A DNA stretch of 64,000 bases, from positions 1-64,000 of IMG/VR virus record IMGVR_UViG_3300028048_000103, one strand, 5' to 3'. The notes beneath the pieces are model-generated. The model saw only the letters and a program-made list of their open reading frames with translations, was not told the origin of the DNA and searched no databases. Position numbers and translations under genes: made by a program. Source of the stretch: a virus (taxonomy: Duplodnaviria > Heunggongvirae > Uroviricota > Caudoviricetes). Position 1 is the stretch's first letter, and each line of letters begins with the position of its first letter. Of this stretch, positions 8,057-30,234 are shown one piece after another.

Positions 8057-8227
8057 TTATTTTCTTAATATGTAATACAGGGGTATAGTAATAAGCCATA
8101 TAAATGATAAGAATAAATCCTTTATCCATCCTTTCCAAGAGTCATCATATGGTTTAAACGTACAATAGGCAATAAAAAAACCTACCCAATAAATTAATGA
8201 TATAATTATTGCAATTACAGTTATCAT
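8057..8227 (-). CDS. small membrane protein (about 57 aa)
   Basis: Hand-translated as MITVIAIIISLIYWVGFFIAYCTF...; not in the track. A promoter-like motif lies just upstream. Confidence 0.25.
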   Translation of the reverse strand: MITVIAIIISLIYWVGFFIAYCTFKPYDDSWKGWIKDLFLSFIWLITIPLYYILRK

Positions 8228-8264
8228 ATCTATTCAGTTTTGTTATGTTTTAACTTATACAAAT

Positions 8265-8288
8265 ATACAAATAAAAAAGTTAAATAAA
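8265..8288 (-). promoter_or_regulatory. class II (Bacteroides-type -7 box) promoter-like motif
   Basis: The + strand reads cttatacaaatatacaaataaaaaa. The reverse complement contains TATATTTG, matching TAnnTTTG. Confidence 0.35.
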
Positions 8289-8508
8289 AAAAAATATTAT
8301 ATTTTTATTTTATATAGGGATGGTGTTTAAGTTTCATTCTAATGATATCGAGTTTTGCTTTTTCCTGTGGGGACAAAGATGTATTTGTAACTATTGCCTT
8401 ATTTAAAAGTGTGATATCCTCATTGGTAGGTTTCCAATAATATTCTTTTTGTTGGCATTCATTTGTTTTTTCTTCCATACTCATAATGTTTATTTTATGA
8501 TTCAGTAA

Positions 8509-9000
8509 TTAAAATATTCTACGCATATTATCATTTAGTGGTTGGTACATCATATTATGAGAGGGTTCTATTATTTTTTCATAGACAATAGATTCTGAGG
8601 CAATGCCTTCATAAAGTGTATCGAAGTAGCCTTCTACATAATGAGTTCCTTGTGGTATAGCACATAGGGCGATTACATAATTTATGAAATTAGATGTGTT
8701 ATTATATTGTAACTTAGATTTCAGTTTACAAGCATCTTCAATATTTTTACATGAATGAAAAACGCCTATAGATATTGGATATCCATAACCTTTGACATAT
8801 GCTAATACATGATGATTAATTGCTTTTTGAAAATTTAGCAGCATATCATTATTAGATGAATAGATTTCATTTAGATTAATATTCATATGAGCATATGGTG
8901 TACGATAATCACCATATGGATTTTTTTCAAGCACTTTATATACAGTCAAATTTTCTTCAGTTGTTTTAACTGTTAATGGGCAGTTAACAAAAAGGCACAT
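8509..9000 (-). CDS. hypothetical protein
   Basis: 163-aa ORF. Confidence 0.45.
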   Translation of the reverse strand: MCLFVNCPLTVKTTEENLTVYKVLEKNPYGDYRTPYAHMNINLNEIYSSNNDMLLNFQKAINHHVLAYVKGYGYPISIGVFHSCKNIEDACKLKSKLQYNNTSNFINYVIALCAIPQGTHYVEGYFDTLYEGIASESIVYEKIIEPSHNMMYQPLNDNMRRIF

Positions 9001-9571: not shown

Positions 9572-9880
9572 TTATTTTACATGCGGTTTAATATCTTTAA
9601 GTGTTAGTGGAAATGAATTAAAAGTTTTATAATTGAGTCTAATAGTTTCATTTAATTCAGTAGAGGTCATATCATCTTTATAAAAAGAAACTAAAGATAG
9701 AAATTCTATAATAAAGGGTGATTCGTGTGGTGTCATATTATAATATTTTTTTTTATGTTGGCAAGCATATATTTCCATAGCCATAGAAATCTGAAGGTTC
9801 ATCATAATCAAGTGGAAGTTCATATATAATATCGAATTTAAGGTAGATTGGTGTAAATTCAAAAGTGCTACTGTCATCAA
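9572..9880 (-). CDS. hypothetical protein
   Basis: 102-aa ORF. An alternative overlapping frame exists at 9753..9959. Confidence 0.3.
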   Translation of the reverse strand: MMTVALLNLHQSTLNSILYMNFHLIMMNLQISMAMEIYACQHKKKYYNMTPHESPFIIEFLSLVSFYKDDMTSTELNETIRLNYKTFNSFPLTLKDIKPHVK

Positions 9881-9936
9881 TGGGATACTGTATATCTGTT
9901 GGTCCTACATTTTGTGTTTCAAAGGGAAGTGGTAGT

Positions 9937-10164
9937 TCAAAAGCATCGAGTGGTGTCATATGTTTGATTTTTATCTAATTTATAATTATCCGTTATAGAA
10001 CGTTGTTGACGGATGAATGGTTTATAATTATTTGCAGACAGCATATATGGGCTATTTACAAACATTTTTGAATCTTGATATTCAATAAGGATATCATCAT
10101 CAAGATAATCATCATGTAATAGAGCCATTATAAAAAGGCCATTAGGTGAATCTGTTATTCTCAT
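9937..10164 (-). CDS. hypothetical protein
   Basis: 75-aa ORF. Confidence 0.3.
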   Translation of the reverse strand: MRITDSPNGLFIMALLHDDYLDDDILIEYQDSKMFVNSPYMLSANNYKPFIRQQRSITDNYKLDKNQTYDTTRCF

Positions 10165-10370
10165 TTATTTATATATGTTTTATCATTAAAACTTTGTATA
10201 GTAGGTTTAATTTTAGAAATAACCATCATTTCAACGGGATATTGAAATATTCGTTTTGAGGGAAGTGAATTTGAGTATCTTTCTTTTTTATATGCCCTAT
10301 ACAAAGCCAAGCAATCACGATTTAACATTTCTGAAAAGAAAACATAATAAGGGAAATCTATTGGTCTCAT
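10161..10370 (-). CDS. hypothetical protein
   Basis: 69-aa ORF with a 4-nt overlap with the neighbouring ORF. Confidence 0.3.
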   Translation of the reverse strand: MRPIDFPYYVFFSEMLNRDCLALYRAYKKERYSNSLPSKRIFQYPVEMMVISKIKPTIQSFNDKTYINK

Positions 10371-10371
10371 A

Positions 10372-10836
10372 TTAAAGATTTTTGTTCTTTATAATTTTAT
10401 CATGGTCAAAAGCCCATTGATATTCATCAATATCTTTAATGGGAATCCATTTTATTTCGTCAACTTCATTTGGTTCTGAGAATTCAGAAGTAAGGTGTTC
10501 ATCATTAAGCCCATAATAAATGCAATCATAGATAAAGGTAACATTTTGTCTACCGTTAAGACTATCATCTACATAATTAATTTTAAGTTCTGAAACATCA
10601 TCTTTAGCAAGACCGGTTTCTTCATGTAATTCTCTATATGCAGCATTTTGTAGTGTTTCATCATAATCAAGATAACCACAAGGGCAGCACCATTTACCAA
10701 CATTATCAGGACAACCAACACCTCTTTTAACTGCAAGAAATGCTTTTCTTTTAGGGTCATATACAAAGACAGCAACGGCCACACTTCTACTTATCCAATA
10801 TTCTTTATTATCAATATTTACAGGAAAATTTCTCAT
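10372..10836 (-). CDS. Nudix hydrolase
   Basis: 154 aa. Nudix box GYLDYDETLQNAAYRELHEETGL (Gx5Ex7REuxEExGu). Confidence 0.75.
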   Translation of the reverse strand: MRNFPVNIDNKEYWISRSVAVAVFVYDPKRKAFLAVKRGVGCPDNVGKWCCPCGYLDYDETLQNAAYRELHEETGLAKDDVSELKINYVDDSLNGRQNVTFIYDCIYYGLNDEHLTSEFSEPNEVDEIKWIPIKDIDEYQWAFDHDKIIKNKNL

Positions 10837-13610: not shown

Positions 13611-13726
13611 CAACTGTGATAGGACTCGAACCTATGACATCGGTATTAAAAGTACTAAAATAATTGCTGTTAATTTTCCCTATCGGAAAACTATGTTACG
13701 TGCTCTACCCACTGAGCTACACAGTT
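13611..13726 (-). tRNA. tRNA-like gene with about 40-nt insertion in the anticodon region
   Basis: The reverse complement gives an acceptor AACTGTG/CACAGTT, a D-arm TAGCTCAGTGGGTAGAGCA and a T-arm ATAGGTTCGAGTCCTAT. The central region is about 40 nt too long and contains the hairpin TTTTCC-gatag-GGAAAA. Confidence 0.5.
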
Positions 13727-27814: not shown

Positions 27815-27853
27815 TACTTCGGCTGCGACTCGAACGCAGGACCAACTGCTTAG
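27815..27853 (-). tRNA. 3' exon (positions 35-73) of intron-split tRNA-Arg (anticodon UCU)
   Basis: Reverse complement: CTAA-GCAGT-TGGTC-CTGCGTTCGAGTCGCAG-CCGAAGT-A. It pairs perfectly with the 5' exon at 28408..28441 (acceptor 7/7 including one G-U, anticodon stem ACTGC/GCAGT 5/5). Confidence 0.7.
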
Positions 27854-28407
27854 CTTACCACTATAACTTTCGTTACCAATATAAGACTAAAAATGACCTA
27901 CAGCACAAGAGGATTGCAGTCATTCCGTAACATCCCTTTTATGTTCCTCTTATTTCGGGTCTTTATATTGTTTGTGGTCTGGACTATCCCTTAACCATAT
28001 TGAAATCTTGCAAGATTGGATTAGGGTTCGTTCTTACCCCGAATAGCAGGTCGCTTTCCTGCACAGTTTGTTTTAATTTTAGAATCCAAATTTCAACTTA
28101 GGTTTCTTCCGTCTAGTCTCTACACACTGTCTATTACAAATACTGAAATGTAGCTTAATTGCATATATTTGCCTTCTATGCAATAACGCCTTTTCATTAC
28201 ATTCCCAATTAACACCTTTTGCAAACGAGGTGAGTATTTGTTTTTAACATTGGTTCGGTATTAGCATATATTAACAGGACTCTTCACCTGTCCGACTCAT
28301 ATAGAGTGTCTGATTTGATTTTATACTTAGCTTTCACCGAATTTGGAAGTTTCTACATCTAAAATTTCTTTTAGTGCACTCCTAATTAATTGATTATCAA
28401 TTACTTA
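27854..28407 (-). mobile_element. group I intron (about 554 nt) in the anticodon loop of tRNA-Arg(UCU), inserted after position 34
   Basis: Both flanking tRNA halves match exactly. The minus-strand reading has an R-like element GTAGAGACTA (28108-28117), an S-like GATAGTCCAGACC (about 27975-27990) and a P-like AATTCGGTGAAA (about 28335-28346) in the canonical order. It ends in G before the 3' exon, and the 5' exon ends in U. Confidence 0.6.
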
Positions 28408-28441
28408 AAGGCAGTTGCTCTATCCACTGAGCTACCGAAGC
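28408..28441 (-). tRNA. 5' exon (positions 1-34) of intron-split tRNA-Arg (UCU)
   Basis: Reverse complement: GCTTCGG-TA-GCTC-AGTGGATA-GAGC-A-ACTGC-CTT. Confidence 0.7.
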
Positions 28442-28465: not shown

Positions 28466-28504
28466 TGACCCCTGTGGGATTCGAACCCACGACCCCAACA
28501 TTAA
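28466..28504 (-). tRNA. 39-nt tRNA 3' half (anticodon N-U-U; acceptor AGGGGTC), 3' exon of the second intron copy
   Basis: Reverse complement: TTAA-TGTTG-GGGTC-GTGGGTTCGAATCCCAC-AGGGGTC-A. Same length and junction context (gtaccactataactttcgttacca) as the Arg 3' exon. Confidence 0.5.
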
Positions 28505-28932
28505 CGTACCACTATAACTTTCGTTACCAGTTGCAAACAAGGAGTTTAGCCCTATATTTACATACCTGTTTGTGGTCTGGACTGTATCTTAACCATATTG
28601 AAATCTTGCAAGATACTGTATGAAGAGATTTGCTGAGTTGCACAGCCTGTATCTAACTCCGGTTTCACTGGGAACATTCATACAATAATTTCAACTTAGG
28701 TTCCTCCTGTATAGTCTCTACACACTGTCTAAAGGTATTGCATTCTTGCAACTAAACTATCTCACTCCTTTTAACATTGGCTCGGTATTACCATCAGCAA
28801 CATACTTTCAAATCATTAATCCTCAGTATTCCCAAAGCATTCATTTACTTGTACGTTCTGTTAAGGTTTCACCGAATTAGGGAGGTTCTACATCCGAAGT
28901 TTCCTTCGGTGCACTCAAATTACACATTGTTC
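28505..28932 (-). mobile_element. second group I intron copy (about 430 nt), homologous to 27854..28407
   Basis: Shares four conserved blocks with intron 1: 3'-terminal accactataactttcgttacca, the S-like block at 28567-28612, the R-like block at 28688-28730, and the P-like block plus gtgcactc at 28870-28908. The central regions are divergent. Confidence 0.5.
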
Positions 28933-28967
28933 AAGACCGCTGCATTAGACCACTCTGCCACCTCACC
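28933..28967 (-). tRNA. tRNA 5' half resembling tRNA-Ser(UGA) (class II D-arm), 5' exon of the second intron copy
   Basis: Reverse complement: GGTGAGG-TG-GCA-GAGTGGTCTAA-TGC-A-GCGGT-CTT. This follows the architecture of a bacterial tRNA-Ser(UGA) 5' half. The acceptor GGTGAGG does NOT pair with the 3' half at 28466..28504. Confidence 0.45.
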
Positions 28968-29109: not shown

Positions 29110-29160
29110 AGTCACCATAGTATGCTGCAAGTTGGAATTGAACCAACAACTATATTCAGT
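29110..29160 (-). tRNA. orphan tRNA 3'-half-like element (T-arm GTTGGTTCAATTCCAAC, acceptor TTGCAGC)
   Basis: Good T-arm and 3' acceptor, but no canonical D or anticodon arm upstream. Possibly another split or degenerate tRNA. Confidence 0.25.
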
Positions 29161-29307
29161 TTTTTCATAATCACAGCCTTCGTGACCATATTTTATTTTC
29201 AATTTCACATATTCAATAAAATAATTTGTATTTATCAGTATTGTCAAAGAGCAATTAATTTCATTGCAAATATATAAATCTTTTTTTTAACAACAAAATT
29301 AATTTTA

Positions 29308-29378
29308 GTTGAAGGCAGAGGAATCGAACCTCTATTCTGGGAACCAAAATCCCATGTCTTGCCTTTAGACGAGCCTTC
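29308..29378 (-). tRNA. tRNA-Pro (anticodon UGG)
   Basis: Reverse complement: acceptor TGAAGGC/GCCTTCA, D-stem GTCT/AGAC, anticodon stem TGGGA/TCCCA with loop TTTTGGT, T-arm AGAGGTTCGATTCCTCT. Confidence 0.65.
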
Positions 29379-29405
29379 AATTTATTTCAAAGAACAATTG
29401 TTTAT

Positions 29406-29428
29406 CTTACAAATATCGTGCCAAAATA
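29406..29428 (-). promoter_or_regulatory. class I promoter-like motif upstream of tRNA-Pro
   Basis: cttacaaatatcgtgccaaaata. Confidence 0.4.
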
Positions 29429-29451
29429 TAAATTTTAACATTTTTTTTTTG

Positions 29452-29488
29452 CGGGAATGATAGGATTCGAACCTATAACCTACGGATT
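29452..29488 (-). tRNA. 3' exon of split tRNA-Asn (anticodon GUU)
   Basis: Reverse complement: AA-TCCGT-AGGTT-ATAGGTTCGAATCCTAT-CATTCCC-G. It pairs 7/7 (acceptor) and 5/5 (anticodon stem) with the 5' exon at 29591..29626. Confidence 0.6.
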
Positions 29489-29490
29489 AG

Positions 29491-29562
29491 ACTCAGCAAA
29501 AGGAATCGAACCTTTTTTTGGACTTGCAATGCCACCCGTCCTAACCATTAGACGATACTGAG
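29491..29562 (-). tRNA. tRNA-like element embedded inside the tRNA-Asn intervening sequence
   Basis: Reverse complement: acceptor CTCAGTA/TGCTGAG, D-arm GTCT-AATGGTTA-GGAC, T-arm AAAGGTTCGATTCCTTT. The anticodon-arm region GGTGGCATTGCAAGTCC does not form a canonical stem. Confidence 0.4.
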
Positions 29563-29590
29563 TTGGTTCGTTTCGGTGAACCATTCCGTT

Positions 29591-29626
29591 AACAGTCCGT
29601 TGCACTAACCGTTGTGCTACATTCCC
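29591..29626 (-). tRNA. 5' exon of split tRNA-Asn (GUU)
   Basis: Reverse complement: GGGAATG-TA-GCAC-AACGGTTA-GTGC-A-ACGGA-CTGTT(AA). Confidence 0.6.
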
Positions 29627-29975: not shown

Positions 29976-30185
29976 AAAAAATATTGAGTTACTTGTCCTT
30001 ATCACCTTACAGTTGGTTCGTACTTCCTTCGCCTTGGATAATATATTGTTCATGCATGTCAACTATATTACCTGTACACCTTTACAACCCGCTATTGTTT
30101 TCACTGTAACACATACTTGCAAAAGCTGAAAGTTGTTTTCCTAATCCCTCACTCAATATTAAAATTTCAAAGAACATTTATTTAT

Positions 30186-30208
30186 CTTACAAAAATCATG
30201 CCAAAGGC
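30186..30208 (-). promoter_or_regulatory. class I promoter-like motif
   Basis: cttacaaaaatcatgccaaaggc, pointing leftward into the non-coding region 29981-30180 and the tRNA at 29902. Confidence 0.4.
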
Positions 30209-30234
30209 AATAAAAGCAAACATTTTTTTTTAAA

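Follow-up and report, generated by a model that had tools for sequence, protein, structure and literature searches.

A group I intron between the halves of tRNA-Ser(UGA) and tRNA-Lys(UUU) in a phage tRNA array, a probable product of deletion between two related introns

The minus strand of positions 28466 to 28967 in the IMG/VR virus record IMGVR_UViG_3300028048_000103 (Caudoviricetes), of which the first 64,000 nucleotides (the window) were analysed, carries the 5' half of a tRNA-Ser(UGA) gene, followed by a group I intron and then by a tRNA-Lys(UUU) 3' half (Table 1). The two halves belong to different tRNAs and do not fit together. The neighbouring gene, tRNA-Arg(UCU), is interrupted by a homologous intron. 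Comparisons with relatives suggest that the Ser-Lys locus arose by deletion between two copies of the same intron family.

The identity of both halves was established by comparisons with sequences outside the window. The 5' exon is identical in all 35 nucleotides to the Ser 5' half in L032, a locus in one of the closest relatives, and in L167, a Logan contig from a relative that carries the Ser 5' half and the Ser intron and ends inside the intron. Joined to the Ser 3' half of L032, it is recognised by ARAGORN as tRNA-Ser(tga), and the cloverleaf is the fold with minimum free energy. The first 22 nt of the 3' exon are shared with intronless tRNA-Lys genes (anticodon UUU or CUU) in no fewer than 119 metagenome contigs, and 31-34 of its 39 positions are identical to the 3' exons of the intron-bearing tRNA-Lys genes in L181, L198 and L205. 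With a designed 5' half it is recognised as tRNA-Lys(ttt). A 38-mer from the Lys exon had no match in IMG/VR, and a 39-mer spanning the junction had none in metagenomes.

When the two halves are set against each other, three of seven positions pair in the acceptor strands GGTGAGG and AGGGGTC (two of them as G-U wobbles) and none of five in the anticodon stem strands GCGGU and UGUUG. With the Ser-Lys exons ligated, ARAGORN detects no tRNA, and with the Arg exons ligated it detects tRNA-Arg(tct). The cloverleaf that ligated exons of a functional intron-containing tRNA gene should form is thus absent here, and it was found in all partner controls (Arg, Ser and Lys). A weak match of the tRNA model (18 bits, E 0.5), in which intron bases are paired with the Ser 5' half, was judged to be due to chance. 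An earlier note, made from the letters of the window alone, had described a Ser-UGA-like 5' half and a 39-nt 3' exon starting at tRNA position 35, and had stated that the halves cannot pair. Direct reading and the comparisons above agree with this description in every particular that could be checked; the 3' half, which the earlier note left unnamed, is here assigned to tRNA-Lys(UUU).

The intron is homologous to that of the tRNA-Arg gene. An intron of about 430 nt sharing four conserved blocks with its neighbour had been proposed earlier, and alignment extends this to at least eight exact and colinear blocks of 9-27 nt. Six core patterns were searched and each occurs exactly twice in 64 kb, once per intron; the 22-mer at the 3' end, GGTAACGAAAGTTATAGTGGTA, has two matches in the window while none was expected from 100 shuffles. 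These core patterns reveal no intron fragments beyond the two copies in the 64 kb. A scan of the window for orphan T arms returned nothing besides the Lys half, the Arg half and a mini tRNA-like element of 55 nt. Neither a D-arm scan nor BLAST with the interval of the relative returned a Lys-type D arm, and the Ser 3' half of L032 had no match. The partner halves are therefore missing from the window, as had been supposed from its letters. The two features of a split or trans-spliced tRNA are not seen: there are no partner halves within 64 kb and the intron is not physically broken. A permissive scan for orphan halves based on pairing gave no information, the sequence being AT-rich, and the T-arm and D-arm scans and BLAST took its place.

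Judged by its sequence, the intron is a complete group I intron, IC3-like and of tRNA type, and is predicted to be self-splicing. The Rfam model RF00028 matches positions 28931..28558 over the full model with 29.8 bits (E 9.6e-6) when the 551-nt region is searched alone, which falls short of the gathering score (50); no group I match appeared when the whole window or 3 kb was searched. The score is low because of four long insertions. A covariance model, R1, was based on nine minimal phage tRNA introns (190-230 nt; from Leu, Gln, Lys and Asn genes), all taken from other phages. It matches positions 28931..28500 with 117.9 bits (E 4e-35), end to end and uninterrupted over model positions 1-211, with insertions only in P5 (68 nt), P6 (43 nt), P8 (89 nt) and P9.0 (36 nt). 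The group I signature on which the earlier note had made its reading depend is thus recovered by both models, below the gathering score in the case of Rfam. The tRNA-Arg intron is matched by R1 in two pieces.

The fold is conserved in the family. RNAalifold on the nine-member alignment gives P2, P3, P4, P5, P6, P8, P9 and a GAAA-capped P9 hairpin with 22 covarying pairs, and when the P7 pseudoknot is included 96.6% of the cells are paired, compared with 27-44% when the partners are slid. Compensatory changes are seen in 24 pairs of the family alignment, and the observed values were reached by none of 500 shuffles. In P3, four of six pairs have compensatory changes. The P7 pseudoknot is 100% paired across the alignment with two covarying pairs; in this intron P7 consists of G-C, a bulged A and the GACU/AGUC pairing, with an A x C mismatch as the last pair. 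This mismatch was considered as a scar of hybrid origin and rejected, since the large introns of relatives are mismatched at the same pair. There is no open reading frame (ORF) above 39 aa inside the intron, which is therefore without a homing endonuclease.

Table 1. Features of the Ser-Lys locus and its neighbour (window positions)
Feature	Position	Strand	Description
5' exon	28967..28933	minus	35 nt, GGTGAGG..GCGGTCTT; class II D arm; ends C32-U33-U34; layout GGTGAGG-TG-GCAG..TGC-A-GCGGT-CTT; positions 1-34 of class II tRNA-Ser(UGA), anticodon divided into U and GA
Intron	28932..28505	minus	428 nt; starts GAACAAUG, ends GUGGUACG; omega-G at 28505
3' exon	28504..28466	minus	39 nt, TTAATGTTGGGGTCGTGGGTTCGAATCCCACAGGGGTCA; positions 35-73 of canonical tRNA-Lys(UUU); layout TTAA-TGTTG-GGGTC-GTGGG-TTCGAAT-CCCAC-AGGGGTC-A
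Internal guide sequence (IGS), UUUGAG	28919..28914	minus	GAG pairs with C32-U33-U34 (U-G wobble at the splice site); UUU pairs with the initial GAA of the intron
P2 hairpin, CCGAAG-GAAA-CUUCGG	28894..28909	minus	Paired in the R1 alignment; covaries with CUAAAA-GAAA-UUUUAG of the Arg intron
P3 5' strand, CCUCC	28881..28885	minus	Pairs with GGAGG 28707..28703; CUUCC/GGAAG in the Arg intron
R box, GUGUAGAGACUAUAC	28709..28723	minus	Includes the P7 5' strand
S box, AAGAUACAGUCC	28579..28590	minus	Includes the P7 3' strand
P9 domain	28508..28576	minus	ACCAC 28576..28572 pairs with GUGGU 28512..28508
P9 inner hairpins		minus	P9.0 hairpin 28572..28534; GAAA-capped GUAAC-GAAA-GUUAU 28527..28514
Neighbour tRNA-Arg(UCU)	28441..27815	minus	554-nt group I intron 28407..27854; matching halves; 3' exon also 39 nt

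The Ser introns of L032 and L167 have an identical IGS and agree with this intron over the whole P1-IGS block (22/22). GAA, with which the intron begins, also opens a tRNA-Ser(UGA) 3' exon, and the Lys exon begins with UUAA and has no pairing to the guide UUU. No P10 or anticodon-stem pairing was found for the 3' exon; P10 is weak also in several family members with matched halves. Searches with parts unique to this intron gave no match, neither for a P9.0 pattern in IMG/VR nor, in GTDB genomes, for a second P9.0 pattern and a P1-IGS 24-mer.

The intron belongs to a family that is widespread in phages. The 22-mer GGTAACGAAAGTTATAGTGGTA was found in 35 IMG/VR contigs, and in 34 of these it precedes two bases, the second of them G, and then a tRNA 3' half. 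The contigs represent diverse phages and range from 7 to 381 kb. Among the IMG/VR loci (L001-L035, L181, L198, L201 and L205) the host genes are tRNA-Leu(UAA), Gln(UUG), Arg(UCU), Lys(UUU), Met and Asn, and many phage members are found in tRNA-Leu(UAA). At least 17 of 25 distinct members have matching halves, and in these the intron mostly follows C32-U33-U34 in Leu(UAA), Gln(UUG), Arg(UCU) or Lys(UUU), a preference explained by the three-base guide. The tRNA-Lys(UUU) genes with a family intron at 34/35 and matching halves are those of L181, L198/L201, L205 and L011. Other positions occur in L017 (35/36 in tRNA-Asn) and in L027 (upstream of the whole anticodon arm). The family is close in sequence to the introns of cyanobacterial tRNA-Leu(UAA) and to the Azoarcus IC3 intron. 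In the record of Microcoleus phage My-WqHQDG, a tRNA-Arg of 286 nt is annotated that spans such an intron. Closely related 3' ends (P7-P9) are present in two crAss-like phages, MT774387 cr111_1 (L232, 4001-4046) and OQ198718 Kolpuevirus frurule (L233, 4001-4053), where they adjoin GIY-YIG genes beside or between ORFs for the replicative DNA helicase (DnaB); the intron RNA is unannotated in both records.

The closest relatives in IMG/VR with the same local layout are UViG_3300032007_000048 (107.9 kb; loci L032 and L037) and 3300028886_000029 (L034 and L036). A search based on the neighbouring 226-aa protein led to the same two contigs and otherwise to contigs with a different gene context. L032 is 87-96% identical to the window and has an ordinary tRNA-Ser(UGA) gene at 8153-8961, with the 5' half, an orthologous intron and a proper 3' half (GAAAACCGCC..TCTCACCG, 8909-8961). 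It is preceded by an intact tRNA-Asn, a tRNA-Gln with a group I intron and a 119-nt tRNA-like element, in that order. The stretch after the Ser gene is about 1.5 kb long and consists of a spacer of about 0.4 kb, tRNA-Pro, tRNA-Asp, an HNH endonuclease gene (9606-10433) and, closing it, tRNA-Lys(UUU) (10442-10527). The tRNA-Arg gene with its intron starts 22 nt past tRNA-Lys and is the same Arg gene as in the window, where the locus is 96% identical to L032 10503-11440.

The window aligns with L032 as far as the S box of the Ser intron and resumes at the T arm of tRNA-Lys, and BLAST finds nothing of the L032 Ser-Lys interval anywhere in the 64 kb. The Lys 3' half, joined to the intron, lies at the same distance from the Arg gene as does tRNA-Lys in L032. 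Since the window lacks the interval and is aligned on both sides of it, the Lys 3' half stands alone at the position of the L032 tRNA-Lys and is fused precisely at the 3' splice site of an intron that has the 5' end and the 5' exon of Ser. Because the ligated Ser-Lys product is no tRNA, the window segment appears to be without a working tRNA-Ser(UGA), Lys(UUU), Pro or Asp of its own; L032 has all four.

The P3-P5 block of the intron is identical in 37 of 37 positions to the Ser introns of L032 and L167, and this, together with the identical P1-IGS block and the GAA start and guide UUU that suit a Ser 3' exon, assigns the 5' part to Ser. The R-P3 block is closest to Lys introns. The P5 extension has 59 of 59 nt in common with the Gln intron of L172, and P2 differs by paired substitutions from the Ser intron of L167, which is otherwise identical over the stretch that it covers. 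Furthermore, tRNA-Gln(UUG) is intronless in the window (29308-29379) and carries an intron in L032 (7163-7786) and L172 (520-954). The variable presence of the Gln intron and the shared P5 extension indicate that introns are gained, lost and patched between near-identical strains.

Two further observations concern L032. Its Ser intron has an insertion of about 190 nt directly after the 5' splice site (8185-8383) with CTTGAA at both ends, which may represent a target-site duplication or act as a decoy P1. The L032 tRNA-Lys is an intronless and unusual gene of 86 nt with a long variable arm, and the free-standing HNH gene and this 86-nt tRNA-Lys(UUU) are found together in the arrays of different phages (L032 9606-10527, L175 916-1824). 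In L174 (3243-4090) only the initial bases of the 86-nt tRNA-Lys follow the HNH gene. The pair looks like a mobile endonuclease-tRNA cassette.

The arrangement is best explained as a recent and non-functional recombinant, the by-product of a deletion between two paralogous introns, and this reading is given a probability of about 0.6. The ancestor would have carried two copies of one group I family, both without a homing endonuclease gene, at position 34/35 of tRNA-Ser(UGA) and tRNA-Lys(UUU), and these copies would have formed direct repeats 1-2 kb apart. Homologous recombination, either by unequal crossing-over or by single-strand annealing after a double-strand break, would fuse both copies into one intact intron and delete everything from the Ser 3' half through the intervening genes to the Lys 5' half. 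Recombination between direct repeats eliminates the DNA that separates them and gives exactly this product, and it is favoured because the junction lies exactly at the insertion site of the family. An intron-bearing tRNA-Lys is a reasonable ancestor because other phages carry introns in tRNA-Lys(UUU) with 3' exons similar to the one found here. Endonuclease breaks at tRNA-Lys, which has an HNH neighbour in L032 and L175, are a plausible trigger, the activity of the enzyme being putative.

The event appears to be recent because neither the exons nor the ribozyme core have decayed. The locus is probably still transcribed with the array, and the intact core should still be able to pair the guide GAG with C32-U33-U34. 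Splicing of the chimera is probably inefficient, and a ligated product would be no tRNA because the exons cannot form an anticodon stem or an acceptor stem. The locus itself is most likely a dead remnant without function. Among the origins suggested in the earlier note, a chimera produced by recombination or exon shuffling gains support from the intact Ser gene in L032, the missing interval and the tRNA-Lys introns elsewhere. Trans-splicing loses ground, since the intron is continuous and neither an additional intron fragment nor an orphan partner half was found in the window.

Several points weigh against a deletion between Ser and Lys introns. In none of the relatives found does the tRNA-Lys at this position carry an intron; the L032 copy is intronless, and none of the further phages reached through the HNH gene of the relative has an intron in tRNA-Lys. 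A block-by-block comparison of the intron shows no crossover point, the parental Lys intron being unavailable for comparison. The chimera rests on one assembly: near-identical contigs from other samples stop at 29174 (in two samples), 28770 and 28440, and no independent contig was found that covers the Lys junction together with the intron's 3' part. Finally, the searches cover the 64 kb of the window, and about 40% of the genome lies outside it.

The main alternative to a deletion in the phage is a collapse in the assembly, for which there is a smaller yet appreciable chance. The genome would then have separate Ser-intron-Ser and Lys-intron-Lys genes, and the assembler would have passed through the common intron once and dropped the interval. 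The window apparently comes from a metagenome assembly, as it had no match in the phage genome collection, and paralogous introns are direct repeats, the classic reason why assemblies collapse. In three further assemblies, all of near-identical phages, the contigs end around this 734-bp stretch and leave the 3' junction unspanned, and L167 ends inside the intron, directly past a 30-mer shared with the Ser intron of L032. However, the longest exact repeat between the two introns of the window is 27 nt, which is short compared with the final k of modern assemblers, although a hypothetical pair of Ser and Lys introns could be more alike than these two. Two of the breaks, at 29174 and 28440, fall outside the introns, and the former is the exact point where the alleles of the window and L032 diverge, which indicates strain polymorphism rather than a repeat collapse. 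Moreover, the second intron is itself hypothetical, as tRNA-Lys is intronless in L032.

A further reading is that the Ser intron spread ectopically into tRNA-Lys, between CUU and UUAA, by reverse splicing or by Ser-templated repair of a break (for instance after HNH cleavage) with the Ser 5' flank copied along. The guide GAG requires only C32-U33-U34, which tRNA-Ser(UGA) and tRNA-Lys(UUU) have in common, and this explains the many hosts with U34. The 5' two-thirds of the intron are wholly of Ser/Gln type, and breaks are plausible because the HNH gene lies immediately upstream of tRNA-Lys in L032 and L175. The loss of the Ser-Lys interval would nevertheless still be needed, so that this explanation overlaps with the deletion, and a Pfam scan of ten large window ORFs, which was not exhaustive, showed no reverse transcriptase. 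Ectopic spread is considered unlikely. Less probable still is a functional split, in which a reciprocal locus elsewhere in the genome holds the Lys 5' half, an intron and the Ser 3' half, and the precursors swap their 5' exons in trans, guided by pairing of the tRNA exons. Either 5' exon could be used by either intron because the guide recognises CUU only, group I ribozymes of this type can trans-splice in vitro (PMC3895272), and both halves and the ribozyme are undecayed. However, neither a partner half nor a third intron was found in the 64 kb. Cis-splicing of the mismatched exons would compete in a continuous intron, the close relative L032 has an ordinary cis arrangement, and the family members with identifiable halves (at least 17) are all matched in cis. 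If true, the reciprocal pair would represent group I trans-splicing of tRNAs that occurs naturally in a phage and yields both tRNA-Ser(UGA) and tRNA-Lys(UUU). Deletion between paralogous introns remains the preferred explanation.

Group I introns in the anticodon loops of bacterial tRNAs are classical. The intron described here resembles the IC3 introns of Anabaena and other cyanobacterial and plastid tRNA-Leu(UAA) genes and of Azoarcus tRNA-Ile in its P2-P9 core, the P3/P7 pseudoknot, the R and S boxes, the anticodon-loop site (after U34, as in tRNA-Leu(UAA)), the 3-bp P1 with the exon, the U-G wobble at the splice site, the omega-G and the lack of an endonuclease gene. It differs in residing in a phage, in the long insertions in P5, P6, P8 and P9.0 and in its score below the Rfam gathering threshold. 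In the split tRNA genes of Nanoarchaeum equitans and Caldivirga, the halves have complementary leaders, both partners are present in the genome, and they are joined by a splicing endonuclease and a ligase at a bulge-helix-bulge motif. The halves in the window are likewise apart from their partners, but a complete cis ribozyme lies between them and no partners were found in 64 kb. A free-standing homing endonuclease in a phage tRNA cluster is known from T4 (SegB). Similarly, the relatives have an HNH gene of putative activity inside the tRNA array, together with a variant tRNA-Lys, whereas the window is without such a gene.

Trans-splicing group I introns in organelles, such as the intron in fern mitochondrial rRNA (PMC10027690), are broken in a loop and encoded in two places. 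They share non-contiguous exons with the phage locus, but the phage intron is in one piece and the window has no other fragment. Splicing of the Anabaena pre-tRNA intron needs the exons to pair within the anticodon stem (Zaug, McEvoy & Cech 1993, as cited in PMC3984707), a pairing that is impossible here because, unlike in Anabaena, the exons come from different tRNAs. At cyanobacterial tRNA-Leu(UAA) loci, recombination has exchanged whole loci or introns and the genes stayed functional (Rudi et al. 2002, as cited in PMC3984707). The histories of intron and exons are uncoupled there as in the phage, whereas the joining of halves of two different tRNAs is particular to the latter. In a 2026 survey, 81% of the bacterial tRNA introns were of subgroup IC (PMC13011429). 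A review from 2014 states that the phage group I introns known at that time were all in protein-coding genes, despite many phage tRNA genes (PMC3984707). Literature searches revealed no paper describing group I introns in phage tRNAs, and no described example of a complete group I intron between halves of two different tRNAs.

Provided that the junction is real, the locus would be a clear natural case of exons shuffled when copies of a self-splicing intron recombined. The setting, a phage tRNA array, is one from which group I introns had long been said to be missing. The family appears to be a mobile and mosaic one that is under-described in the U34 tRNAs of phages. Its variable presence and its lack of endonuclease genes in tRNAs for Leu, Gln, Arg, Lys and Ser help to explain both how it spreads and how arrays are destabilised. 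Phage tRNA repertoires are also under-counted because tRNA finders miss the intron-bearing genes.

The window has a G+C content of 30% and about 20 tRNA genes, which form an array on the minus strand at 23.4-31.8 kb. Among the ten large ORFs searched with Pfam are those encoding a BACON-domain protein, a thymidylate synthase-DHFR fusion and a UvrD-type helicase. Several ORFs, including spurious ones that cross the junction, gave no record in exact-protein look-ups. No near match to the window was found among deposited phage genomes, and the weak DNA matches are limited to tRNA segments of Bacteroides crAss-like phages and one Erwinia phage. Since these are the only DNA matches and no near genome has been deposited, the window represents a phage of a Bacteroidota-type host, and this phage is probably known from metagenomes only. 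A scan for sigma-70 promoters was set aside because it is not meaningful for such a phage.

Several unusual tRNA-like structures occur in the window. The tRNA-Asn(GUU) gene at 29452-29626 (minus) has a 103-nt insert in the anticodon loop, and this insert holds a complete tRNA-like gene identified by ARAGORN as tRNA-Ala(UGC) (29562..29490). The nested arrangement is also present in six independent contigs (L165, L166, L168, L170, L171 and L173) with 98.9-100% identity; tRNA-Asn is uninterrupted in L032, L167 and L172. A further tRNA-like gene, at 13611-13726 (minus), has intact acceptor, D and T arms (Rfam tRNA model, 46.4 bits) and a 56-nt stretch in place of the anticodon arm, and is not called by ARAGORN. 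The 55-nt mini tRNA-like element at 29123-29177 (minus) consists of an acceptor stem and a T arm only, and its 119-nt version is found in the same place in L032 (7908-8026). Upstream of several tRNA genes there is a repeated motif centred on TTTGGCACGNTATTTG (window 29385-29450 and 30164-30231, minus; also L174 and L175). It is present in unrelated phage tRNA arrays too and may be a phage promoter or a processing signal.

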